In this document: positions 5,728 through 61,615 of the stretch, piece after piece
Layout of the letters: every line of letters begins with the position of its first letter
How positions within the stretch are numbered: position 1 is the stretch's first letter
Source of the DNA: a virus
IMG/VR virus record: IMGVR_UViG_3300022701_000122
Location: 64,001-128,000 of that record
Strand: one strand, 5' to 3'
Length of the DNA: 64,000 bases
Notes under the pieces: generated by a model
What the model saw: the letters and a program-made list of their open reading frames with translations, nothing else
What the model was told of the DNA's origin: nothing
The model's database searches: none
Program-made: the position numbers and the translations under genes

Positions 5728-5742
5728 GGACAAATTCAAAAT
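5728..5742 (+). promoter_or_regulatory. GGACAAA motif, putative phage promoter
   Basis: TAGCGGACAAATTCAAAA in intergenic gap before the clamp loader gene. Confidence 0.6.
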
Positions 5743-8221: not shown

Positions 8222-8629
8222 ATGAGTGGTGGTATTGGAAATACTAATAAGTTTTTATCTATTTATGCAAGTACGAAACTTAATAAATCTATTTGTGTAG
8301 AAAGACACGATGATGACCCATTAAAAATATTGGCTAAAGCAAAAAGAGAAAATGCGCTAAATAGATTTAATGATGATATATACTATTGTATATATAATAC
8401 AGTTATTGATGGTAAAGATGCAGTTATTATAATTTTTACTCTTATGTTACCTGGACCAGTAACTGGTAGTAGTAAATCATCTGAAATAGTTATGAATATC
8501 GTTAAATTCTTAGAAAGTAAATTTATGACATTAGATCATAATAAATATTTAAGAAATATTGATAATAAAAATAAAGGGTCTGCAATATTGGTTGTTAAAA
8601 AGAAGTTGGATGAAAATGACAAATTATAA
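8222..8629 (+). CDS. Hypothetical protein
   Basis: AGGAG RBS before ATG 8222 (track start 8204). Confidence 0.7.
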   Translation: MSGGIGNTNKFLSIYASTKLNKSICVERHDDDPLKILAKAKRENALNRFNDDIYYCIYNTVIDGKDAVIIIFTLMLPGPVTGSSKSSEIVMNIVKFLESKFMTLDHNKYLRNIDNKNKGSAILVVKKKLDENDKL

Positions 8630-8646
8630 ATTTGAAGGATATTAAA

Positions 8647-11855: not shown

Positions 11856-11870
11856 GGACAAACTCTAAAC
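11856..11870 (+). promoter_or_regulatory. GGACAAA motif, putative phage promoter
   Basis: GGACAAACTCTAAAC in intergenic gap before the fibre operon. Confidence 0.6.
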
Positions 11871-28607: not shown

Positions 28608-28622
28608 GGACAAACAGTAAAT
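28608..28622 (+). promoter_or_regulatory. GGACAAA motif, putative phage promoter
   Basis: TAGCGGACAAACAGTAAAT intergenic. Confidence 0.65.
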
Positions 28623-32190: not shown

Positions 32191-35100
32191 ATGAAAGGGG
32201 CAAATACTATGATGGATAGTTTGCGTGTCGAAAATAGTGATAGTACTAAGATTGAAGAAGATGTTAAGTTTGAAGAAAAAGATCCCTACGAGGGGATAAC
32301 TTTTAAAAAAGTACAATCAACCATAAAAAATAAAAACGGAAAAGTTATATTTAATGAAGAAGTTGAATTTCCAGATTATTTTGATGAAAATGATATAAAT
32401 ATTGTTGCGAGTAAATATCTTTGTAATTCAGCAAAAGCAAAAGAGACTTCTCTTAAACAAATGGTTGAACGAATTGGCGATACTATAACAGAAATGGGAG
32501 ATAAACAGGGATATTTTGATGTTGGTTTAATTGATAAAGAAGAATTTAGATACTGGCTAAAATATTATCAAATTAGACAGTATTGTGCATTTAATAGTCC
32601 AGTATATTTTAATGTTGGACTTGAAGATCCGGCTCAGGTATCTGCGTGTTTTATATTAGACATTCAAGACGATATGGATTCTATTTCTGGAATAACCCAA
32701 TTAGAAAGTAGAATTTTTAAATGGGGAAGTGGTTCTGGAATTAATATGAGTAATCTAAGATCACGAAAAGAAAAAGTTCGTGGTGGTGGACATGCATGTT
32801 TAACTGATGATACAGTTGTATATATAAATGAAGAAAAACGCACAACTATAAAGAATTTATGGAAAATGAAAGTTGATAATATTGATTTTCCAGATATTTT
32901 ATCTGCTAAAGATGCAAAACGAATTATTCCGAATAGAATAATTGATATTGTTTATAATGGTCATCAAGTGGTTTATAAAATGGATACATCACTTGGATAC
33001 ACAATAAAAGCAACTATGAATCATAGATTCTTGTCTAAACAAGATGGATGGCAACCATTGGAATACTTTAATGAAGGAGATTGTATAGCAGTATCTGATG
33101 GCGACAAATTAAATTATGATACTATTATAGATATAAATAAATTTGGAAAAGAACACGTATATGATCTTCAAATGGAATCTCCTTTTCATAATTTTATAGC
33201 AAATGGTTTATTATCACATAATAGTGGTCCAACTTCATTTATGAAAACTCATGATACAAATGCTGGTGTAATAAGAAGTGGTGGAACATTACGGAGATCA
33301 GCAAAATTAGTGTGTCTTGATGATTGGCATCCAGATATTCTTCATTTTATAAATTGTAAGAAAAGAGAAGAAGAAAAATTAAGAATATTAATGAATTCTG
33401 GATTTGAACCAGAAGAAGGTTATGATCCATCAGACGATGCTTATTATCAAAATACAAATATATCTGTTCGATTATCTGATGAATTTATGGAGGCAGTGGA
33501 AAATGATGATAAATGGAGTACTAAATATGTATTAACAGGTGAAACTTGTGATACTTATAATGCAAAAGACATTCTAAAAGAAATATCAGAAACTGCATGG
33601 GAGACGGCTGATCCTGGAATTCTATTTTCTGGAGCAATGAATAAATGGAATACTACCAAGAAAGTTGGTGAAATAACAACCTCTAACCCGTGTAATCCTG
33701 ATTGGATTCCAGTTTTAACACCAAATGGTTATAAGAAATTTAGAGATATTAACAATAAAGTATTTGTTGGTGGGAAAGAAAATGAATGTTCAGATCTTAT
33801 TTTTACTGGTACTAAAAAAGTATATGAGATTGTTCTTAAAAGTGGATTAAGATTATACGCTACAGATAATCATAAAATAAATACTGAATATGGAGATGTA
33901 GAAGTTAAAGATCTTACTGTTAATAGTAAAGTAAGAGTTGATTATACAAAAATTCCATATGAATTTGATAAAGAAGAGTTTGAAAAAGGTTTATTGTGTG
34001 GGTTTTTATTTGCAGATGGGACTATAGATAAACATTGTAAATATTTTTGTTTTTCATTGGGAATAGAAGAATTTGATTTTGAACATGTATTTCTAGAACT
34101 TATACATAAATATACTGATAGTGATAAAACATTTAAACCACATGGACAAAAACCAGATACATGTAGATTATTAGGAGTTAATAAAAAGAAAATAGTTGAA
34201 AATTTTTTTAATAATATATTTAAAGCTAAAAATAAGAATGAATTTGATCTTTTTGATCATTCTATTTCTTTTCAAAAAGGTTTTATTCAATCAATGATAT
34301 CGTGTGATGGTCACGTTGTTAATAGTGGATATACTAAACATGTTGGCATTACGCAATCTGGTAAAAAAGGATATAATATATTAAGTCAGATTCAGTTATC
34401 TCTTGCATCTATGGGCATTTATTGTTATTTCGGAATACATAATCATGAAATGTCTGGAATACGTGATGGGAAAGAATTTCATTATAAAACTGTATATAAA
34501 CTTGAAATAAATGATGTTTGGGAATTTGATAAAGAATTTGAATTATATAGTACAAATAAACAAAAAAGAGTTAAAGAGATAGTTTCTATACCAAAATCTC
34601 ACCCAACAAGAATAACTAATCTGAAAACTTTTCAACATATAAAAGAAATAAATGACTATTCTGAGGAAGAAGTTTATGATATTCAAGTTCCAGATATTCA
34701 TTATTTTGTAGCCAGTGGTGTTGTCGTTCATAATTGCGGTGAGTATTTATCTCCTATAATAGAAGAAAATGGTGGTGCTGCTTGTAATCTTGCGTCTTGT
34801 AATTTCTTGAAATTTTTTAAATTTAAACAAGTTGGAGAATCATTTGAAGTTAATTTTGATTTTGAAAATTTTGAGAGATTAATAAAAATAATGATAATTG
34901 CTCAAGATATAATAATTAATGCTGGTAGTTATCCAAATAATAAGATTAGGAATAATGCTGTTAAACTTAGACCACTTGGGTTTGGATTTTCTAATCTTGG
35001 TTCCACTTTGATGAATATGTGTTTACCATATGATAGTGATGAGGGAAGATTATTAGCAAGTTTATTAACATCCTTACTGACATCAACTGCATTTTGTATA

Positions 35101-36441: not shown

Positions 36442-36882
36442 ATGTTGACGATTTTTAATTTTCCAAGAAGAAGCGGTAAAACAAGATTATGTAAGCGACT
36501 ACTCTTAAATAATAAAAAATCAATAGCTGTATTTGTTGAAAATGAAATTGCGAAGAGAAATTATATAAAATTTGTAAATGATAATTATAGAGTATTCGCT
36601 TTACATAATATTTATGATGCGAGAATACAATTAAGCGGTTTGAATATAGATACTTTAATTTTTGATGATTCTTTAAATATAATATATAAATATGAATTAT
36701 TAGCTATTAATGAGTTATCAAACATGTATAATATTATTATAATAGGTACAAATATTTATAGAAAAAGTAAATTCCCATTAAGTATGATCTCTTCTACCAG
36801 TGATAGAATTTTCCATAGTGATTTTTTATGTAAAATAATTAAAATTATTTTTGATATTTCAAACTGTGGTATTGTTATTTAA
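36442..36882 (+). CDS. Small P-loop NTPase-like protein
   Basis: FPRRSGKT Walker A-like, LIFDD Walker B-like; 146 aa. Confidence 0.55.
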   Translation: MLTIFNFPRRSGKTRLCKRLLLNNKKSIAVFVENEIAKRNYIKFVNDNYRVFALHNIYDARIQLSGLNIDTLIFDDSLNIIYKYELLAINELSNMYNIIIIGTNIYRKSKFPLSMISSTSDRIFHSDFLCKIIKIIFDISNCGIVI

Positions 36883-36888
36883 TATAAC

Positions 36889-36903
36889 GGACAAATGGTA
36901 AAT
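36889..36903 (+). promoter_or_regulatory. GGACAAA motif, putative phage promoter
   Basis: GGACAAATGGTAAAT intergenic. Confidence 0.65.
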
Positions 36904-36922
36904 GTTCGAAAGGGGTAATAAA

Positions 36923-37093
36923 ATGACAGATAAAAAGAAAATAACGGTAGAAGATGAAATTATAATAAAAGATAGTTTTAATATAAAATCAAAAACACTT
37001 ATCGATGAATATAATATCGAAGAAAATAATCCAATCGGAAATGAAGATAAAGTAAAAAAAGGTAAAGTCAAAAAGACTATTATATTGGAGTAA
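36923..37093 (+). CDS. Small hypothetical protein
   Basis: AGGGG RBS before ATG 36923 (track start 36902). Confidence 0.6.
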   Translation: MTDKKKITVEDEIIIKDSFNIKSKTLIDEYNIEENNPIGNEDKVKKGKVKKTIILE

Positions 37094-39069: not shown

Positions 39070-39362
39070 AATGGGAGATTATTATTATGAGCGATGAACG
39101 GGTTGCTACTTTAAGAGTTTTATCGAATAAAAGAAGATCTGATGGTAGTTATGATATAAAATATGAATGCTCAATATGTATGCATAAGTTAAACTTGAAA
39201 CTTGTAAGTATAAATACTTTATCAAGTGATATTATTTTATGTAAATCATGTTTAACTGACTGCATTGGTTTAATAGATAAAAGCTATAATATTGATTCAA
39301 GAGTAATAGCTAAAAAAACAGATAAAATAGATAAATATCTGGTCGAAGAAAAGAGTTGTTGA
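39063..39362 (+). CDS. Small zinc-finger protein
   Basis: CSIC and CKSC pairs; start may be 39088. Confidence 0.55.
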   Translation: MVKWEIIIMSDERVATLRVLSNKRRSDGSYDIKYECSICMHKLNLKLVSINTLSSDIILCKSCLTDCIGLIDKSYNIDSRVIAKKTDKIDKYLVEEKSC

Positions 39363-39398
39363 GGGGCAATTATTAAAATATATTCGATCAGAATTTAT

Positions 39399-39440
39399 AA
39401 ATAGCCATGACATCTTTATTGGTGTTATGGCTATTTTTTT
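39399..39440 (+). terminator. Rho-independent terminator
   Basis: ATAGCCATGACATC/GGTGTTATGGCTAT stem (two G-U pairs) followed by T-run. Confidence 0.85.
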
Positions 39441-39463
39441 ATGTAAAAGGAATTAATAGTTTA

Positions 39464-39478
39464 GGACAAATTATAAAT
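39464..39478 (+). promoter_or_regulatory. GGACAAA motif, putative phage promoter
   Basis: GGACAAATTATAAAT immediately after a terminator. Confidence 0.7.
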
Positions 39479-39539
39479 ATATTATTTATAGTTAGTCTTA
39501 TATCAATTCAAAATAGATAGCTTAAATGGGAGTTTTAAA

Positions 39540-40058
39540 ATGAATGAATCTTTGAAAAGAGAAGTTGTTAAAAAATGGTTTGGTATTGATCGAGTTTTAT
39601 TTGGAGATAAAGATCCAAAAGATGTTTTATCTGCTGAAGATCGTTCTAAATACTTGACCACAAAAGGTAGTCTTCTCGCTAATCTGGCAGAAATGTATCA
39701 TATTATGGATTTTCAAACAGAATCGGTTAATTATAAATCTGAAAGAGAATTTTTTGATGCATGTGTAACTGAAGCAGATGAAGCCATTAAACGTTCTAAA
39801 ACTCTTCTTACGAATGAATCAGTTTTAAAAATGGTTAGAGAAGAAGTTAAAGAAGTTGGTGAATTAGAGCAATTGACTGAAGAGCAAGTTGCAAGATACG
39901 TTGTATTAAAGAGAAAACATGCAACAGCAATTGATTCAATGCTTCATGAAAAATTCATAACTAAAGAAAATCGTAAAAAACTTAGTGATTGGAAGGGTAA
40001 AGTTATTGTAGAAGCATATAAACATTTAAGAAATGCCCTTATAGATTTATCTATGTAA
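39540..40058 (+). CDS. Hypothetical protein, possible head/core component
   Basis: GGGAG RBS; helical; L/I-x-E motifs. Confidence 0.6.
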   Translation: MNESLKREVVKKWFGIDRVLFGDKDPKDVLSAEDRSKYLTTKGSLLANLAEMYHIMDFQTESVNYKSEREFFDACVTEADEAIKRSKTLLTNESVLKMVREEVKEVGELEQLTEEQVARYVVLKRKHATAIDSMLHEKFITKENRKKLSDWKGKVIVEAYKHLRNALIDLSM

Positions 40059-53628: not shown

Positions 53629-54813
53629 ATGACTCGTAAACCAAACTTATTTATATCGAAAAGAAATTATGATGATATTCCAAAATTGGCAAGTAAAACT
53701 CAATGGTTAGATAAAGGAGCAACCATAAAGTGTTCTAAAAAGTATCAGGGAGATATGATTAACTTTTTAGCTGGTTTTGGATTGGAAGTTAAAAGATATG
53801 ATAACGAAACCAATATTTTCGAAGTTTTAAAGAAGAATAGTGAACAACCAAGATATAAACAATATCTTAAAGATAAAAAGCAAAAAGAGCTTGATATCCA
53901 ATTTGAAAAACTTAAAAAATTTAATGTCGCAACACCAACCAGAAAATTAATTATTGGAAGAAAGTATAAATCATTATTAACCCCAAGTTTAATATATGAA
54001 GTTATTGGAGTTTCCGACGATTTTAAATTTTATCATTGTAAACTCAAAAAATCATATGGGTATCATTACTATAATAATCAAAATTATGAGAAATGGGTAA
54101 TATGGTCGTATATAAACCCAATACCTCTTGATTCAGATAATGTTTCGGAAGAAGATTCATGTAAAGTAATAACTTCTAGTTTATTTAACATGTATTCTTT
54201 TTCAAATCGATCAATTAGTGAGTTGTATAAAAGATGTATAGAACACAATATCGATTTTTCTAATGTTAATACTGATGGATTAGATAATGAATATAAATTA
54301 AATGTTATAAGATCTCTTGTATATGGATTTTCTATAGGAAGTATGGTTTTCATTAAAGAAAGATCTGGTGGTGGTGAAGTTAAAAAATATATTTGTATAT
54401 ATGGTGGAGAGAGATTGAAAACTATATTTGATTTTATAGAAGGAAGATTCAAATTATATTTTACAGGCCAACTTCCAGAAGAAGGGAAGTACATACATCA
54501 ATTAAATGATGATTTTAGAAAAAGATTCTTTGATTCAGCTTATATAAATATATGTACTATAGCATTAAACGAATATGATGGTGAACTGGAAAAACTTTTA
54601 AAGATAGTTAAGTCAGTTATCACATTCAATTATGGATTACTTGGATCGTCCAATCAAAATATTCAAAATCTGCGAACGTTTGAACTAAAATTACATGATG
54701 TTGTTAATCATGTAAGAGGAAGGTTTGATGATGTAAGAAGTCCTCTAATTAGAGAATTGGTCAGACACAGATCTTCATTTTATATAAACCAAGATGAAGA
54801 AGAAACTGCGTAA
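53629..54813 (+). CDS. DUF262 (ParB/Srx-like) domain protein, degenerate motif
   Basis: SLVYGFSIGSMVF...IYGGERLKTIFDFIEG aligns with the DUF262 IDGQQRLTTI..F motif. Confidence 0.6.
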   Translation: MTRKPNLFISKRNYDDIPKLASKTQWLDKGATIKCSKKYQGDMINFLAGFGLEVKRYDNETNIFEVLKKNSEQPRYKQYLKDKKQKELDIQFEKLKKFNVATPTRKLIIGRKYKSLLTPSLIYEVIGVSDDFKFYHCKLKKSYGYHYYNNQNYEKWVIWSYINPIPLDSDNVSEEDSCKVITSSLFNMYSFSNRSISELYKRCIEHNIDFSNVNTDGLDNEYKLNVIRSLVYGFSIGSMVFIKERSGGGEVKKYICIYGGERLKTIFDFIEGRFKLYFTGQLPEEGKYIHQLNDDFRKRFFDSAYINICTIALNEYDGELEKLLKIVKSVITFNYGLLGSSNQNIQNLRTFELKLHDVVNHVRGRFDDVRSPLIRELVRHRSSFYINQDEEETA

Positions 54814-54816
54814 ATG

Positions 54817-54863
54817 AATGGGCATGAATTCTTAAGTTAATTCATGCCCATTTATTTTTTTTT
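54817..54863 (+). terminator. Rho-independent terminator
   Basis: AATGGGCATGAATT/AATTCATGCCCATT 14-bp stem + T-run. Confidence 0.9.
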
Positions 54864-54883: not shown

Positions 54884-54898
54884 GGACAAACTGTAAAT
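54884..54898 (+). promoter_or_regulatory. GGACAAA motif, putative phage promoter
   Basis: GAAGGACAAACTGTAAAT right after a terminator. Confidence 0.7.
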
Positions 54899-54918: not shown

Positions 54919-55320
54919 ATGAAAGAAATAGATATATTAAAAGATATTGTGCGTAGTAAAGGAATTATTACAGAACAAGAATTTATGAGTAAGAAATCGA
55001 ATAGAGTAAGATTACATTCAACCAATCCAAAATCATTTTTAGCTGTTGGTAAAAATGGAACACCAAGATTTCCAATAGTTAATCAATATAACGCTGTATC
55101 TATGTCTACATTAAAAAGAAGTTTAGCAGCAGCAAGAAGACAGAGATCAATAGCTCAAAATAAAAGTAAGTATCAAAAAATAATTGATAAATTAAAAGTT
55201 TATATAAATAGAATTGAAAAAAGAACGAATACTTATCCAGTATCTTATAAGATAGATAATGCATTAAAAAATATATTGAATAAAGGTATGAAAAAAACAC
55301 TCATAAAAATAGGCGAATAG
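54919..55320 (+). CDS. Basic hypothetical protein
   Basis: AAGGAG RBS; K/R-rich. Confidence 0.7.
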   Translation: MKEIDILKDIVRSKGIITEQEFMSKKSNRVRLHSTNPKSFLAVGKNGTPRFPIVNQYNAVSMSTLKRSLAAARRQRSIAQNKSKYQKIIDKLKVYINRIEKRTNTYPVSYKIDNALKNILNKGMKKTLIKIGE

Positions 55321-55330
55321 GTTAATTGAT

Positions 55331-56257
55331 ATGATAAATGTAATAAATGTAAATAAGTTTATTCGTGAAGGAAAATTGAAGGGTCCGATAACGAGTCCTC
55401 AAATATTCATGGGTAAATCTTATACACCACATCCAGAAGGGTTACATAGCGAAGAAATATTTGGATTAGACGGTTCACCGGAAAGAAGAAATTCGATGTC
55501 GTGGATTGATTTGAACTGTAATGTAATACATCCAGTATTTTATGATATTGTATCTAAACAAATAGAGAAAAAAATTGTTAAACTAATATCTAATGAAGAA
55601 ATGTTTACTATAAATGAAGAGACAGGTGAACTTGTTCAAGACGAAGAAGGGGAATTAACTGGATTTTCAAGTTTTGTTAAAAATATAGATAAAATAAAAT
55701 TTAGAAGAGCAGAAGAAGGATCAAAAGGTAATAGAAATAAGGTAGTTAGTGTTTTAGAAAAAAATATTAAGAATAATACATTTTTTATAAATAAATTGAT
55801 AGTTATTGCACCAGACTATAGACCAATATTTTATTCAGAATCGGATGATCGACCAACAATCGATGAGTTAAATGATATATATAAAAGTATTATAATATTA
55901 TCTAATCAATTAAAAAGTGTATCTGGACCATTATTTGACATACTTAGCTATAAAATGCAGATGTATATGAAAGAATTGTTTGAATGGGTTAAATCGAAAG
56001 TGAGTAAAAAACACGGTATAATAAGAAGAATGATGCTTGGTAAACGAGTAGATTTTTCTGCTCGATCTGTTATATCACCAAATCCAAATCTTAAACTTGG
56101 TGAAGTTGGAATACCACTTAATACGGCGTGTGGTTTATTTGAACCAAATTTGATATATGGTATAGTAAATTCTCCGTATTCCAAAGATATACCAGATGAA
56201 TTTCATGAAGAAGTTAAATCATTTTTGGGTAAAGAATTACTTCCTGATTTAACGTAA
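55331..56257 (+). CDS. rpoC: RNA polymerase beta' subunit, N-terminal part
   Basis: GLHSEEIFG, MSWIDL, APDYRP, LNDIY, GIIRRMMLGKRVDFSARSVI, VGIP, LFEP; clamp Zn finger absent. Confidence 0.93.
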   Translation: MINVINVNKFIREGKLKGPITSPQIFMGKSYTPHPEGLHSEEIFGLDGSPERRNSMSWIDLNCNVIHPVFYDIVSKQIEKKIVKLISNEEMFTINEETGELVQDEEGELTGFSSFVKNIDKIKFRRAEEGSKGNRNKVVSVLEKNIKNNTFFINKLIVIAPDYRPIFYSESDDRPTIDELNDIYKSIIILSNQLKSVSGPLFDILSYKMQMYMKELFEWVKSKVSKKHGIIRRMMLGKRVDFSARSVISPNPNLKLGEVGIPLNTACGLFEPNLIYGIVNSPYSKDIPDEFHEEVKSFLGKELLPDLT

Positions 56258-56276
56258 TAATAAAGGCGATTAAAAA

Positions 56277-56957
56277 ATGTATATATCAGAACAGTATTTA
56301 AATGAATTATCTTATTTCGTAACGCCATACGTTAAAAAATTAATAAATAATATCCCAACTGTTACTAAAAAAGATTTCATTGGCAATGTTGAGCCAGGAG
56401 ATATTGTTCTTGGATTTTCGCCAAGAGAACTGAAAACGGTAAGAACATCTAAGATAATTGCATCTGTTCAACGATCACCATATACTACTTCAAAAATTGT
56501 TGCTGATAATAAGACTATTATTGGATATGGAGTTAAGGCAGTCAATACAGTTGATGAAAATTTTCTTAGAACATATCAATTAAGAAATTTATTAATTGAA
56601 CGACATGAATTATGTTTAATTAGAATAAATGATGCTACACTTACACAAAAAAGAAAAGCTATAGATTTTTGTTTAAATAGACTTGGACTTGAATATAATT
56701 CTTCTGATTTATTGAAAACTATATGGAATGTTTTTACACGAAAGAAACTATTTCCATTTTTTAGAAATGAACCATTGGAGAAAAAAGAAGTAGATAATTT
56801 ACAAAGACCACTTTTTTGTTCTTCTATTATTGCATTGGGTTATTGGTATGCCGGATATAAACATAAATTTAATGGTAAGAGTCCATACGAACTTTGGCCT
56901 ATTGATTTTTTAATTGATGATAATACAACTGGTGTTTGTAGAGTGGAGCAATTATAA
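56277..56957 (+). CDS. Permuted papain-like (YiiX/YebB, NlpC/P60 superfamily) protein with N-terminal leader; catalytic His missing
   Basis: PGDIVL, SPYTTSKI (normally SxYSHVGI), LGLEY, LFCSSII, WPIDF; leader MYISEQYLNE. Confidence 0.75.
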   Translation: MYISEQYLNELSYFVTPYVKKLINNIPTVTKKDFIGNVEPGDIVLGFSPRELKTVRTSKIIASVQRSPYTTSKIVADNKTIIGYGVKAVNTVDENFLRTYQLRNLLIERHELCLIRINDATLTQKRKAIDFCLNRLGLEYNSSDLLKTIWNVFTRKKLFPFFRNEPLEKKEVDNLQRPLFCSSIIALGYWYAGYKHKFNGKSPYELWPIDFLIDDNTTGVCRVEQL

Positions 56958-56976
56958 AAAATAAAGGATAATCGTA

Positions 56977-57264
56977 ATGATGGATTTTTTTAAAGAACGT
57001 CACATTTATGATAAGTTAGTAGATGATAACGTATTAGTATGGGAAAGTCATGAAGATGATGTAGATTATTTTGTAAAATGGACGAGAGTAAGTGATAATG
57101 AACACAGAATAAGAGAACATGTGCCAGTTAATAGATGTAATACATTTGGTCAATCAAGATTAAGTTTAAATTTTTTAAAAAAAGGAAAATATCAAATAGA
57201 TATAACTGCATATAGTGAAAAAGGTCTTCAGAGTGATAAGTCATCTATTTTATTGTCAATATAA
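56977..57264 (+). CDS. Small FN3/Ig-like protein
   Basis: LVW...Y...GKYQIDITAY...S. Confidence 0.5.
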   Translation: MMDFFKERHIYDKLVDDNVLVWESHEDDVDYFVKWTRVSDNEHRIREHVPVNRCNTFGQSRLSLNFLKKGKYQIDITAYSEKGLQSDKSSILLSI

Positions 57265-57323
57265 CAAACATTTTTATTAGTTAATGTCAATAGTATAAAC
57301 ACTGGTAAGAAAGGATTAAAGAA

Positions 57324-57728
57324 ATGAAGAAATTAAATTTTACATTAATTTTATTGCCGATTATTGTTGTTTGTTTTATGGTTTCCCCATTATTTGCTGC
57401 AACTGTAACATTAACATGGAATCAACCAAATGAATCGGAAGAAAATATTACGGAATGGGAAGTGTTTTGGGGATACGAGGGTAGAGGTGGAAACGGTGAA
57501 GAGTTTGTATACCAATTTAATCCAACCACAAATTCAGAATTACTTGTGACTGAGAAAACATGCGTTATAGAAAATGTAGATAATGGAAAACAGACATTTT
57601 ATGCAGTTAGAGCCAAATCTGGAGAAGTAAGAAGTTTTTATTCAGAAGAAGTATCAACTACTATTCCATTATCAAGTCCATCTGGAATTCAGATTAATAT
57701 ATCGATAACGATTACAACAAATCCATAA
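57324..57728 (+). CDS. Secreted fibronectin type III protein with signal peptide
   Basis: MKK + hydrophobic core + LFA cleavage; ATVTLTWN...TFYAVRA...SFYSEEV. Confidence 0.8.
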   Translation: MKKLNFTLILLPIIVVCFMVSPLFAATVTLTWNQPNESEENITEWEVFWGYEGRGGNGEEFVYQFNPTTNSELLVTEKTCVIENVDNGKQTFYAVRAKSGEVRSFYSEEVSTTIPLSSPSGIQINISITITTNP

Positions 57729-57769
57729 ATAATTAATAGTAATTATATAATAAATAAAATGGGTGATTT

Positions 57770-58273
57770 ATGTTTTTATCAGAAGAATGCATCAATGAAA
57801 AAATAAATTTAAGTGAAGGAAAATTTTGGGAATGGTTAAAGAAAGTATTCTATGATCATAATCCAAGACATCCACGAATGGTAGAATTAAATCAAGATTA
57901 TTATGAATATATTTGGCATTGTAAAAGAGATCATCGAGATACAACGATGAAAGCAAATATTCCAATTGGTAATGATACTGAAATAAAAATGGATTACGAT
58001 GAAGAAAATATTCAAAAGACTGCATGTGTTCTTGAAGCACGTATTGAATATTTAGAAGGAATAATAGCTGTTATAGAGGAGGAAGGTATAGAGGAAGTTT
58101 GTCAATATAATAAATATAAATCGGAATGTCACAATGTATCACGTAATCTTCTTAGAGCATCAAAAATACGATTAAAACATGATAAAAAATATCTGCAAGG
58201 AATAAAATCTGGAAGGGTAAAACCAAGACGAGATTTTAAAGCAGAATTAGATAATGCCAAATATATAATTTAA
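57770..58273 (+). CDS. Hypothetical protein with N-terminal leader
   Basis: Leader MFLSEECINE related to 56277 and 58291. Confidence 0.75.
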   Translation: MFLSEECINEKINLSEGKFWEWLKKVFYDHNPRHPRMVELNQDYYEYIWHCKRDHRDTTMKANIPIGNDTEIKMDYDEENIQKTACVLEARIEYLEGIIAVIEEEGIEEVCQYNKYKSECHNVSRNLLRASKIRLKHDKKYLQGIKSGRVKPRRDFKAELDNAKYII

Positions 58274-58290
58274 AATGAGAATAATAAAAA

Positions 58291-58656
58291 ATGTTTATAT
58301 CAGAACAATACTTAACTGAAATGTCTGTTACTGTAAAATATAAACGAAAATTATTTGATGCTATTGTTTGCCCAAATAGTGGCTTATATTTTTTAGCTGA
58401 TTTTAATGATTGGTCTATAGAATGGGCTGAATATGTTGCTCTTGAAGAAGATATAGATAAAATAACTGAAGATCATTGGAAAGTAATTCATTTTATTCGA
58501 AGTTATTACTCTAAATATAATAGACCACCACGTTTAAGAACAATATTTCGTAAAACTGGATTTAAGTTAATGCATATTTATGAACTATTCCCAAATGGTC
58601 CTGGTCGTGGTGCTGGACGAATGGCTGGACTCCCATATAAACAACTTCCGATATAA
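58291..58656 (+). CDS. dsrC: DsrC/TusE-family protein lacking both conserved C-terminal cysteines, with N-terminal leader
   Basis: FLADFNDWSIEWAEYV, EDHWKVIHFIRSYY, KTGFKL..IYELFP.GPGRGAGRMAGLP; GAC to GAG and terminal GCV to LPI. Confidence 0.92.
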   Translation: MFISEQYLTEMSVTVKYKRKLFDAIVCPNSGLYFLADFNDWSIEWAEYVALEEDIDKITEDHWKVIHFIRSYYSKYNRPPRLRTIFRKTGFKLMHIYELFPNGPGRGAGRMAGLPYKQLPI

Positions 58657-58682
58657 TACATAAATAAAAGTTCAGATAATTT

Positions 58683-58725
58683 AATAAAGCGTATCTATTT
58701 TATAATAGATACGCTTTATTTTTTT
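58683..58725 (+). terminator. Rho-independent terminator
   Basis: AATAAAGCGTATCTATT/AATAGATACGCTTTATT 17-bp stem + T-run. Confidence 0.9.
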
Positions 58726-58747
58726 AATAAAATTAAGGAAATATGAA

Positions 58748-58762
58748 GGACAAACTACAAAT
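58748..58762 (+). promoter_or_regulatory. GGACAAA motif, putative phage promoter
   Basis: GAAGGACAAACTACAAAT after a terminator, before the beta' C-half. Confidence 0.7.
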
Positions 58763-58831
58763 GAATATATTAATATAATCTAAATAAAATAAGATAATAA
58801 TATATATAGTTACAACAACGCTATTTAAACA

Positions 58832-61615
58832 ATGAGAGGTCTAAATATGGCGGTTGAGAAAATAACAACGGAAGAAGCAAGAAACATATTGTTAATGATG
58901 AGTCAAGGGTATAAAGTTCCAAAAATTGTAAAAGATGTAATATTTAAAGTTGCTAAGACGGAGATAGAAGATAAAGGGAGAGTCGTAATTATAAAACGCG
59001 ACCCAAATGTGGGATCACGTCGTATGCAGGGTATGTATGCTAAAATAGTTGATGGTAGTACTATGGAAATACATCCTGCTATCGTCGGTGGGTTTGGCGC
59101 AGATTTTGATGGTGACACCGTTAGGTGCAGACTTCGATGCACTTGTAAATTTGAGAAAAACGAAACAGGACATACTGTGAATCACGAATGTCATATAGGA
59201 GAAATTTTATCTGTTACTAATGCATTTGAGTTTTACAGTAAAGAAGAAAAAAGAAATGGTATATTGGTATCGAAATATAAGCCTAAAAAAGGTTATACTG
59301 TAAAAATAAAAGCCATTGATATTGAAACTGGCAATGTTGAGATGAAAAATGTTTCTGAATATTCTATCCACGAATTTATAAAATTATACAAGATAGAAGA
59401 TACAAAAGATAGATTTGAAACGATTCATGCTTCTTCAGATCATTCATTAATCGTTTATGACGATAATGATAAACAGATTAAGAAAATTTCTCCTATAGAC
59501 TTGTTGGAAAATCTTAATAATAGATATTTAATCAAAGAAAATAATAATACTAAATCAAATCATTTAAATGATATATCTATACAAAAACTGCAAGAAATGG
59601 GATTAGAATTAATACCAGTTTCAGAAGTTAATATAGAGTATGATCCAGATGAAACAACTGGATATGATTTAACAGTAGATGATTTCTATACATTTGCAAC
59701 TCATGATGGTTTATTTATTCAAGATACAATGGCTGTTTATCATCCAATTTCAAATGAAGCCCAAAAAGAAGTCAAAGATAAAATGATTTCTACATATGGT
59801 ATAGAAGGATTAAATAAACCAAATTTTGAGTTATCAAAAGAAATGTTGACTGGTATTTTCACTCTTACATATGATGAGAATAAAAAATCTCAAATCAAAA
59901 CTATAAAAAAAGCAGATGAAGCGAATACGTTACCCATTGATCAACGTGTTAAATTCAATGATATAGAAACAACTGCTGGTAGAGTTGTATTTAATAGTAA
60001 TTTACCAAAATATATTCCATTTGTTAATGAACCAATTGATAAAAAGAAATTAAATGGAATACTTGCAGGTATATTAGAAAAAAGTATTCAAGACAATGCC
60101 ACTACAATTGATAAATTAATGAGAATTGGATTTTTTTATGCTACTGTATACCCAAAAACTATGTCTATCGATATGATGAAATTAAATCCAAAACTTATTA
60201 AACTTAAACAAAAATTAGCCAATGAAGAAGATATTGCCAGACAAATGGATATTCAGAATGAAATGGAATCTGAAATGTTGAAATATCTTGAAAAAAATCA
60301 TAGCGATATTTTTTATATGGTTAAAAGTGGTGGAGCTAAAGGGAGTAATCAGATACGTCAATTAATGGTTGCGAAGGGATTAACATCAGACCCAATGGGA
60401 AATGTTATACCAGCAATTTCTACCAGTATTTCTGATGGTTATTCTCCAGAAGAATATTTTAAAGTGTCTGCTGCTGGAAGGAAGGGTATAATTGATAGAG
60501 CATTAAACACCGCTAACGGTGGATATGCTTATAGAAAATTTATCTTCTTAATGGCGAATGTTGAAGCAGATATAAATATTGGTGATTGTGATACTCCAAG
60601 AACATTAGATATCAAACTAACTAATGAATTGATGAAAAGAATGCCTGGAAGATATGTATATAATAATAGTAATAAGATAATTCCCATTAATGAAAAAATG
60701 ATTGGAAATGTTATAAAATTAAGATCTCCAATATTCTGTAGATCACAAAAGATTTGTAGAATTTGTTATGGTGATTTATTGAAACAATTGAAGAGTAAAA
60801 ATGTAGGTATTCTGGCTAGTATGACCTGCACCAGCCTTTCAGAGCGCATAATGAAAGCATTTCATCTTGGTGGTGCTGTTATATTAAATAGAGTTGATAT
60901 TATAAATGAAATTATGGATAATTTAAATGATGATATGTTGCAAAAAGTTAAATCATTAGTTCATCAGAAGGAAGATGACTTATTCAATGATTCTGAATTT
61001 GCAACTATAAGAATAGATAAAAATATATATAATTCAACTATACCATCAAATAGAATAGTCGAAGAACATGGTTTTATAAAATTAGTAGTTGGTCATTTTA
61101 CATTATCTTTAGATGGGTTTGAAATAAATGTTGAAATAGAACAACCAGTTAAAATATATATTCCAGAAGAACGAGAAGATAATGATAATATAATATCTTG
61201 TATGTACGCAAAAGGAGATAAATTATTTAGAATTGAATCAATAAGAGAAGATTTTTCAAAATTGGCTCAGAATCTTGATGGGTTGGTTGCTGGAAAGTCT
61301 CCGTGGTCAAGTATTCCCGGTATATATAAGAAATTTTATAAACAGTTAAGTGTTGTTGGATCATGGGATTCAGTTCATTTAGAAACTATTATTTCAAATG
61401 TATTGAGAGCAAAGCGTAATCCACAAAAACCAGCAAGATTGGTTGAACCATTTGATCCAGATTTTTATTCAATTAAGAGATTGCCAGGAATGATGTCATG
61501 GCCCCTTGGCGTAGCCCTCGAAAATTTTTCTGTGGGGTTGCAAAGTGGGCTATGTGAGGATCGTGCTCCATCATCTCAAATTGAAAAAGTATTATTTGGA
61601 GAACCATTGTATTAA
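58832..61615 (+). CDS. rpoC: RNA polymerase beta' subunit, catalytic C-terminal part, with intein
   Basis: KRDP, GADFDGD|TMAVYHP after splicing, SGGAKG, bridge helix RKGIIDRALNTANGGYAYRK, Zn site RSPIFC..ICRICYG, trigger loop KAFHLGG, VHLETII; start probably 58847. Confidence 0.95.
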   Translation: MRGLNMAVEKITTEEARNILLMMSQGYKVPKIVKDVIFKVAKTEIEDKGRVVIIKRDPNVGSRRMQGMYAKIVDGSTMEIHPAIVGGFGADFDGDTVRCRLRCTCKFEKNETGHTVNHECHIGEILSVTNAFEFYSKEEKRNGILVSKYKPKKGYTVKIKAIDIETGNVEMKNVSEYSIHEFIKLYKIEDTKDRFETIHASSDHSLIVYDDNDKQIKKISPIDLLENLNNRYLIKENNNTKSNHLNDISIQKLQEMGLELIPVSEVNIEYDPDETTGYDLTVDDFYTFATHDGLFIQDTMAVYHPISNEAQKEVKDKMISTYGIEGLNKPNFELSKEMLTGIFTLTYDENKKSQIKTIKKADEANTLPIDQRVKFNDIETTAGRVVFNSNLPKYIPFVNEPIDKKKLNGILAGILEKSIQDNATTIDKLMRIGFFYATVYPKTMSIDMMKLNPKLIKLKQKLANEEDIARQMDIQNEMESEMLKYLEKNHSDIFYMVKSGGAKGSNQIRQLMVAKGLTSDPMGNVIPAISTSISDGYSPEEYFKVSAAGRKGIIDRALNTANGGYAYRKFIFLMANVEADINIGDCDTPRTLDIKLTNELMKRMPGRYVYNNSNKIIPINEKMIGNVIKLRSPIFCRSQKICRICYGDLLKQLKSKNVGILASMTCTSLSERIMKAFHLGGAVILNRVDIINEIMDNLNDDMLQKVKSLVHQKEDDLFNDSEFATIRIDKNIYNSTIPSNRIVEEHGFIKLVVGHFTLSLDGFEINVEIEQPVKIYIPEEREDNDNIISCMYAKGDKLFRIESIREDFSKLAQNLDGLVAGKSPWSSIPGIYKKFYKQLSVVGSWDSVHLETIISNVLRAKRNPQKPARLVEPFDPDFYSIKRLPGMMSWPLGVALENFSVGLQSGLCEDRAPSSQIEKVLFGEPLY
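59117..59725 (+). mobile_element. Atypical mini-intein (~203 aa) directly after the DFDGD motif
   Basis: Block B ASSDHSL, block F GYDLTV..YTF...G, ends QD followed by Thr; begins TVRC rather than Cys/Ser. Confidence 0.82.

Follow-up and report, generated by a model that had tools for sequence, protein, structure and literature searches.

Why three genes with unrelated products should open with almost the same ten residues is the question raised by a short gene cassette in an uncultured virus. The stretch of DNA analysed (the window, 64,000 nucleotides (nt)) comprises bases 64,001-128,000 of an IMG/VR virus record of 182,757 bp and 28.4% GC (IMGVR_UViG_3300022701_000122, referred to as G000), the completeness of which is ~58% according to CheckV. 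The cassette consists of five genes, three bearing the shared leader and two without it, and is situated between the separately encoded genes for the N-terminal half (beta'N) and the C-terminal part (beta'C) of the RNA polymerase beta' subunit. The leader, M-[YF]-[ILV]-S-E-x-[YF]-[ILV]-x-E, is likely to be a propeptide of the same type as the capsid-targeting sequence (CTS) of phage T4, and the proteins that carry it would be packaged in the head, cleaved at residue 10 and injected. This tag is portable, strictly N-terminal and under selection at the peptide level; T4-type head machinery is present in the genome, and the tagged genes have a promoter motif in common with the head genes.

An earlier note on this DNA placed the leader at three open reading frame (ORF) starts, and all three are found exactly there: MYISEQYLNE at 56277, MFLSEECINE at 57770 and MFISEQYLTE at 58291. 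The likeness that the note saw at the DNA level is also present, as the pattern ATGTWTWTATCAGAA occurs three times in the window, solely at these starts, while the shuffled window contains it 0.32 times on average and none of 100 shuffles reaches three copies. The genome-wide motif search proposed at the time extends the leader to further unrelated genes, giving 11 intact tagged genes and one leader stub in G000; the eight genes outside the window start at genome positions 7435, 9338, 48254, 130646, 133842, 134372, 135076 and 135606. The core [FYW][ILVMT][ST][EQKD][EQKDH][YFCW][ILVM] occurs 15 times in the six frames of the 182,757-bp record, and 13 of these occurrences stand 0-2 residues from a start Met. 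At 12 bits or more, a position-specific scoring matrix (PSSM) retrieves 11 gene N-termini, compared with 2 of 51,931 internal positions. The terminal [LI]xE is present in nine of the 11 tags, including the window trio (LNE, INE and LTE).

The same tag occurs on other cargo in related viruses. No annotated close relative was usable, because beta' and the capsid protein match annotated phages at only 21-29% identity; likewise, 24 kb of the window had no megablast match among 50,697 phage records. A capsid protein query recovered 11 IMG/VR loci with 49-71% identity, from which four whole records were analysed:

G003: capsid protein 69% identical; ~10 tagged genes, with the motif M-Y-[IV]-S-E-x-[YF]-[ILV].
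G002: capsid protein 64% identical; ~9 tagged genes, with the motif as in G003.
G001: capsid protein 71% identical; weak versions only, e.g., MHLSEEYY on the orthologue of the gene at genome position 48254.
G005: capsid protein 50% identical; another N-terminal cluster, xx[DN][DEN]YLNxLxE, on six genes.

G003 and G002 carry the tag on almost wholly different genes, in line with what the earlier note anticipated. Unbiased clustering of the N-termini of all genes yields the tag as the largest cluster in each of G000, G002 and G003. Only two body families are common to G000 and G002/G003 (25% and 32% identity, the tag being kept in both), and the 32 tagged bodies across the three genomes contain only two cross-genome homologous pairs. 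The [LI]xE end is seen in about half of the tags in G003. When all of IMG/VR was scanned for the tag, seven stretches emerged, five of them in G002 and G003 and two non-genic; the tag is therefore clade-specific. With positions 6, 7 and 10 fixed as [QE], Y and E, the first DNA pattern used against IMG/VR matched nothing, a result that reflects the strictness of the pattern rather than absence of the tag, because looser patterns recovered the relatives. The G005 cluster (IMGVR_UViG_3300021511_000003; genes at 86019, 102517, 102864 and 192566, among others, including an 80-amino-acid (aa) protein with an isoelectric point (pI) of 11) may be a diverged version of the address. In addition, one homologue of the 56277 protein, P0066, has both motif types, that of G000 and that of G005, in tandem.

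The level at which the leader is conserved can be read from its codons. Over 27 tags in three genomes, Ser4 is encoded by TCA, TCT, TCC and AGT, and synonymous codons are likewise in use for Glu, Tyr, Phe and Ile. The occurrence of both TCN and AGT codons for Ser means that it is the peptide on which selection acts. Furthermore, one to two extra codons may separate the start ATG from the motif, the DNA upstream of tagged genes is not conserved, and the amino-acid identity holds over genomes of 27 to 35% GC. These properties make it very unlikely that the first 30 nt are conserved as nucleic acid, either as a translation-initiation enhancer or as a recombination or homing site of a mobile cassette, with the peptide being incidental. 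Such an explanation can draw on the DNA likeness and on a duplicated 45-nt block (the leader plus five codons, 44/45 identity), one copy of which lies in an orphan 23-codon stub (MYISEQFINEKCSST...; L066:6947-7018, genome 134947) and the other in a gene with tandem leaders (L066:7606-7683, genome 135606). The duplication and the stub are footprints of recombination at the leader, which does serve as a recombination site.

The locus that contains the three tagged genes is arranged as follows (window coordinates):

54812-54857, plus strand: intrinsic-terminator-like hairpin (19-pair stem, then a T run) ending the upstream unit.
54884-54898, plus strand: promoter-like motif GGACAAACTGTAAAT, one of 17 copies of GGACAAAYTNYAAAT, opening the unit with beta'N and the cassette.
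54919-55320, plus strand: ORF of 133 aa without an assigned function, first gene of the unit, kept before beta'N in relatives.
55331-56257, plus strand: beta'N as a separate gene (Pfam RNA_pol_Rpb1_2, 7e-10).
56277-56306, plus strand: tag 1, MYISEQYLNE (sequence, DNA pattern and PSSM).
56277-56957, plus strand: tagged gene 1, 226 aa, with a YiiX/Peptidase_C92 (NlpC/P60-type) cysteine-hydrolase-like body, pI 9.4.
56977-57264, plus strand: untagged cassette gene, 95 aa, with a weak Ig-like match.
57324-57728, plus strand: untagged cassette gene, 134 aa, with a hydrophobic, signal-peptide-like N-terminus.
57770-57799, plus strand: tag 2, MFLSEECINE (sequence, DNA pattern and PSSM).
57770-58273, plus strand: tagged gene 2, 167 aa, without a family or fold match.
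58291-58320, plus strand: tag 3, MFISEQYLTE (sequence, DNA pattern and PSSM).
58291-58656, plus strand: tagged gene 3, 121 aa, a DsrC/TusE homologue from Met11 (Pfam DsrC, 7e-24), body pI 9.38.
58683-58720, plus strand: intrinsic-terminator-like hairpin (17-pair stem, then a T run) ending the cassette unit.
58748-58762, plus strand: second promoter-like motif copy, GGACAAACTACAAAT, 5' of beta'C.
58832-61615, plus strand: beta'C with an intein-like insert (Pfam Rpb1 domains 2-5 and Intein_splicing; orthologues in relatives).

The three tagged bodies of the cassette are unrelated, as had been claimed: they show no mutual similarity by BLASTP and give different family or fold results. The protein of gene 56277 matches Pfam PF05708 (Peptidase_C92/YiiX) at E=0.001, below the cut-off, and its structural match in the Atlas (template-modelling (TM) score 0.71 over residues 18-226) starts after the tag; two metagenomic homologues, 41-53% identical, keep S4, N9 and E10 at the leader junction. 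Gene 57770 has no usable match in Pfam, PHROGs or the Atlas structure search, and its orthologue in G003 (39122-39592), 25% identical, is likewise tagged (MYISEEYV). Further cargo comprises a 654-aa SNF2 helicase (Pfam 2e-16; phrog_62 5e-96), a weak GNAT match, one family with a hydrophobic segment and several orphans; according to Pfam, no tagged enzyme-like body is an ADP-ribosyltransferase. A pI above 9 is found for 26 of 30 tagged bodies, compared with ~37% of all genes (p=3e-8). The start of the untagged gene at 57324-57728 resembles an ORF near the capsid-protein gene (genome 22337-22795).

The diversity of these bodies also bears on the origin of the tagged genes. If they were highly diverged paralogues of one ancestor, the N-terminus would be the last conserved remnant, and the tandem position of several tagged genes (genome 133842-136328) does recall paralogue arrays. 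Such an origin is nevertheless extremely improbable: no two tagged bodies within G000 are similar by BLASTP, DsrC and the SNF2 helicase belong to different well-defined families with untagged homologues, and the YiiX/C92 fold represents a third. The helicase is tagged in G000, while its 54%-identical orthologue in G003 is untagged and has a different tagged gene immediately upstream. The DsrC with an added tag and the helicase with and without one are natural add-ons, which demonstrate portability but not packaging.

The promoter-like motif GGACAAAYTNYAAAT is 15 nt long and is present in 17 copies in G000, with none for the reversed control. Its copies in the window are located at 5728-5742, 8617-8631, 11856-11870, 28608-28622, 36889-36903, 39464-39478, 54884-54898 and 58748-58762, and nine further copies lie outside. 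Sixteen of the 17 abut a same-strand gene start or stand at most ~100 nt upstream of it, the remaining copy being 1,469 nt away. The motif is kept in the relatives G001-G003 (12-25 copies each) and is probably read by the phage's own RNA polymerase. It stands before the capsid-protein operon, the core/protease operon and units with tagged genes.

The head module of G000 resembles that of T4 in several components. The protease (genome 33178-33891) matches Peptidase_S77 (PF03420, 39.2 bits, cut-off 27) and the head maturation protease family phrog_207 (7e-30), and it aligns with a T4-like gp21 at the His, Ser and Asp motifs; a phmmer search of this protease against PDB sequences gave no match up to E=1. 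The capsid protein falls in the T4 gp23 family (PF07068, 106.9 bits) and is only about 21-24% identical to those of cultured phages. Three LxE sites with a free middle residue lie in the first 70 residues of the capsid protein, a region that aligns with the propeptide of T4 gp23 (cut at LTE65): in 11 relatives, L5xE7 and L67xE69 never vary and L43xE45 hardly does. The T4-type portal match is marginal. The portal-like ORF (genome 34462-39207; L067:12462-17207, minus strand) encodes 1581 aa, compared with 657 aa in G001 and 1096 aa in G002, and its extra length includes intein-like sequence (...VHNSN junction).

Two tagged proteins of G002, 75 and 82 aa long with a pI of 11-12, are encoded between a conserved acidic core-like protein and the protease behind one promoter motif, the position occupied by gp67/gp68 in T4. 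A PHROGs scan of seven further head-module ORFs identified no scaffold protein, and [LI]xE sites were not found in scaffold candidates of 138 and 148 aa; thus, a multiply cleaved scaffold resembling T4 gp22 was not identified. A complex prediction for the acidic core-like protein of G000 (genome 33894-34340) with the tagged DsrC scored 0.00, which provides no answer and counts neither way. The prohead proteases themselves (33178-33891; G001 125907; G002 266637) begin with MYLFVEG, MYIISEA and MFIIAES, resembling the tag half M[YF][IL]SE, and the protease may use the tag's targeting determinant, as suggested for the N-terminus of T4 gp21.

The position of the cassette raises the alternative that the tag is an address or docking motif for a site elsewhere than the head, such as the multisubunit RNA polymerase, a chaperone, a phage-made compartment or a membrane site, or else a signal for timed proteolytic activation or degradation. 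The unit appears clearly delimited: it runs from a hairpin and a motif copy through the 133-aa ORF, beta'N and the cassette to a second hairpin, followed by the motif 5' of beta'C, and the three tagged genes in the window are co-transcribed with beta'N between two terminator-like hairpins. The beta'N orthologues in G001-G003 are 55-59% identical. The gap between the two beta' genes (window 56258-58831) is hypervariable, with five genes in G000, one in G001 (36461-37045), one in G003 (186681-187001) and three in G002 (117146-119479), and a tagged or tag-like gene is present in it in all four genomes, adjoining beta'N directly in G000, G003 and G002 and in degenerate form in G001. Many G002 tags, moreover, have no terminal Glu. 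A non-head address is still unlikely. Nothing hydrophobic or reminiscent of a secretion signal is seen in the tag, some tagged genes are remote from any polymerase gene or, in G002, lie within the core/protease operon, and the [LI]xE end matches the conserved N-terminal LxE sites of the capsid proteins. The strong shift to basic pI, which DsrC shares, is more in keeping with a head full of DNA than with a polymerase or membrane as partner. A second beta' gene set, 26-29% identical, was detected by tblastn in G003 (144595-146871) and G002 (165015-167366), and the two sets recall the virion and non-virion polymerases of phiKZ/AR9-type phages.

Several observations weigh against the tag being a capsid-targeting propeptide. 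L/I-x-E is a motif of low information, and the tag resembles the T4 CTS at no more than three or four positions, a likeness that could be convergent or fortuitous. The constant presence of a tagged gene beside beta'N, albeit degenerate in G001, could indicate a polymerase-linked role. G001, the closest relative by capsid protein (71%; contig ~71% complete), has only weak tag-like N-termini. Two G000 tags end in IKN and VTI, and only one of nine G002 tags ends in Glu; cleavage directly after the tag therefore cannot be general, and many tagged proteins of G002 would remain uncleaved or be cut elsewhere, a situation that is tolerated in T4. Finally, the GGACAAAYTNYAAAT motif also precedes non-structural genes, such as an RFC-like gene, and the shared regulation is therefore not head-specific. 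For the same reason, the idea that the RNA polymerase encoded in the window is a virion-packaged set, as the motif in common with head genes might suggest, stays speculation.

The DsrC homologue provides the clearest view of the junction between leader and body. As the earlier note held, a complete domain follows the leader: seven aligned cellular DsrC proteins (43-48% identical across the alignment; best local alignments 40-55%) all begin at the Met11 column, and the ten leader residues are therefore an add-on. In the AlphaFold2 model of the 58291 protein, the predicted local distance difference test (pLDDT) score is below 50 for residues 1-7 and ~90 for the DsrC fold from residue 11. The nearest relatives are 105-aa proteins from Desulfobacterales and other Deltaproteobacteria, with at most 55% local identity. 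Both conserved Cys residues are replaced (GACKMAG by GAGRMAG, and PTGCV by QLPI), and the protein, although a DsrC homologue, probably does not function as a sulfur carrier. The pI of its body, 9.38, exceeds those of all 62 cellular homologues (median 5.66, maximum 9.15). The kinship with DsrC suggests a sulfate-reducing host, although the 28% GC of the phage is very low for such hosts.

The earlier note regarded the cargo as host-derived decoys. This description fits the DsrC homologue, whose closest kin are DsrC proteins of Desulfobacterales and from which both Cys residues are gone, and does not extend to the SNF2 helicase, the NlpC/P60-like protein, the weak GNAT match or the orphans. A more far-reaching proposal can be made tentatively, with a low chance of being right: the tag would be an evolvable address code of the whole uncultured jumbo-phage clade, any gene recombining behind the 30-nt leader would become an injected effector, and a Cys-less, charge-inverted DsrC captured from a sulfate-reducing host would enter with the DNA and jam DsrAB/DsrK sulfite reduction from the first seconds of infection. 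If so, DsrC would exemplify a kind of phage effector that has yet to be described, the injected metabolic decoy. The DsrC cargo points to a host that reduces sulfate and to a phage that interferes with dissimilatory sulfur metabolism on entering the cell.

A route by which a capsid-targeting tag would operate can be outlined. The tag would dock the protein onto the prohead core through the aromatic/aliphatic pairs at positions 2-3 and 7-8, and the capsid shell would then close around the core. The serine protease of the gp21 family would cut after the Glu of the terminal [LI]-x-E where this site exists, and the mostly basic cargo would remain with the DNA and be ejected into the next host cell. 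Since the first 30 nt of a gene form the address module, recombination at the leader would shift the tag onto new genes. The outcome in G000 would be a hypervariable complement of proteins loaded into the head, at least 11 in number, three of them from the inter-beta' cassette.

Injected phage proteins are largely unknown beyond a few model phages and are not readable from sequence. If the tag works like the T4 CTS, the injected arsenal of this clade could be listed from sequence only, at ~10 proteins per genome, almost all differing between relatives. Candidates for anti-defence and host takeover would then include the SNF2 helicase, the cell-wall-type hydrolase, the GNAT-like protein and the Cys-less DsrC. 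In addition, a short T4-style address would exist in phages with split RNA polymerases of the phiKZ/AR9 style, which are otherwise known for long propeptides.

The closest known system is the CTS of T4, quoted correctly in the earlier note as MKTYQEFIAE, with a single cut beside the ~10-aa tag. T-even phages contain diverse internal proteins that share only the conserved CTS (PMC3012670; PMC9026906). The suggestion of a new effector-delivery system is thus not sustained, because CTS-sharing internal proteins are established there; what stands of that proposal is a portable peptide tag on unrelated cargo, in a genome with T4-type head machinery. Within the T4 CTS, targeting depends on residues 4 and 7 and processing on residues 8 and 10; a D10 substitution blocks processing but not targeting, so that the two functions are separable (PMC9026906). 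T4 gp21 cleaves after L/I-x-E, and the internal proteins of T4 are highly basic. A Tequatrovirus record contains MKTYQEFITE beside the lysozyme gene and MKTYKEFIKE elsewhere.

Like the CTS, the present tag comprises about ten N-terminal residues on unrelated, mostly basic, dispensable-looking proteins, and it agrees with the CTS at position 7 (aromatic), position 8 (here I/L/V) and position 10 (E in L/I-x-E), although a peptide of ten residues is too short to be tested for homology; of the variants, MTYISQEYIAE is most similar to MKTYQEFIAE. Both systems feature a gp21-family protease and a gp23-family capsid protein, and in both the cargo varies between related phages while the tag stays. Unlike in T4, the first half of the tag is M[YF][ILV]SE rather than MKTYQE, at least 11 cargo genes are present per genome (in G000) rather than 3-4, and among the cargo are an SNF2 helicase, an NlpC/P60-like hydrolase and a DsrC that derives from sulfate reducers and has lost its Cys residues. 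The carrier also differs, being an uncultured, 28% GC virus of jumbo type with split multisubunit RNA polymerase genes, known here from sequence alone. T4 Alt, an ADP-ribosyltransferase packaged via an N-terminal propeptide cut by gp21, acts on the host at injection (PMC9026906). It offers a precedent for the packaging of an enzyme instead of a filler that binds DNA. As a single conserved enzyme, Alt differs from the present cargo, in which several different enzyme-like bodies are tagged.

In phiKZ-like phages (phiKZ, 201phi2-1 and SPN3US), propeptides are mostly longer than 100 residues and are cut at S/A/G-x-E (PMC5694885; PMC9026906). Many head-internal proteins of these phages are processed after Glu and ejected, with a gp21-related protease, and no short tag common to unrelated cargo has been described, except for one SPN3US paralogue pair (PMC5694885; PMC9026906). 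The present clade resembles them as a jumbo phage with a phage-encoded multisubunit RNA polymerase and a gp21-related prohead protease, and differs in its tags of ~10 aa, a T4-like length, with an L/I/V-x-E end.

Cargo-loading peptides of encapsulins are likewise short, portable peptides that bring unrelated cargo into a shell of the HK97 fold. Unlike the present tag, they are usually C-terminal and are not removed by a protease, and encapsulins involve no DNA, portal or delivery to another cell. In the Dar antirestriction system of phage P1, large nucleic-acid enzymes such as the DarB helicase/methyltransferase travel in the head and, once injected, protect the DNA that enters with them; their incorporation follows a hierarchy of Dar proteins rather than one shared short tag, and the two systems are not related in sequence. 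By analogy, a comparable role for the tagged SNF2 helicase is plausible. Set against these systems, what is new is the clade (uncultured, of jumbo type, with split RNA polymerase genes and a divergent capsid protein), the consensus of the tag, the size of the cargo set and the cargo itself, above all the Cys-less, charge-shifted DsrC.

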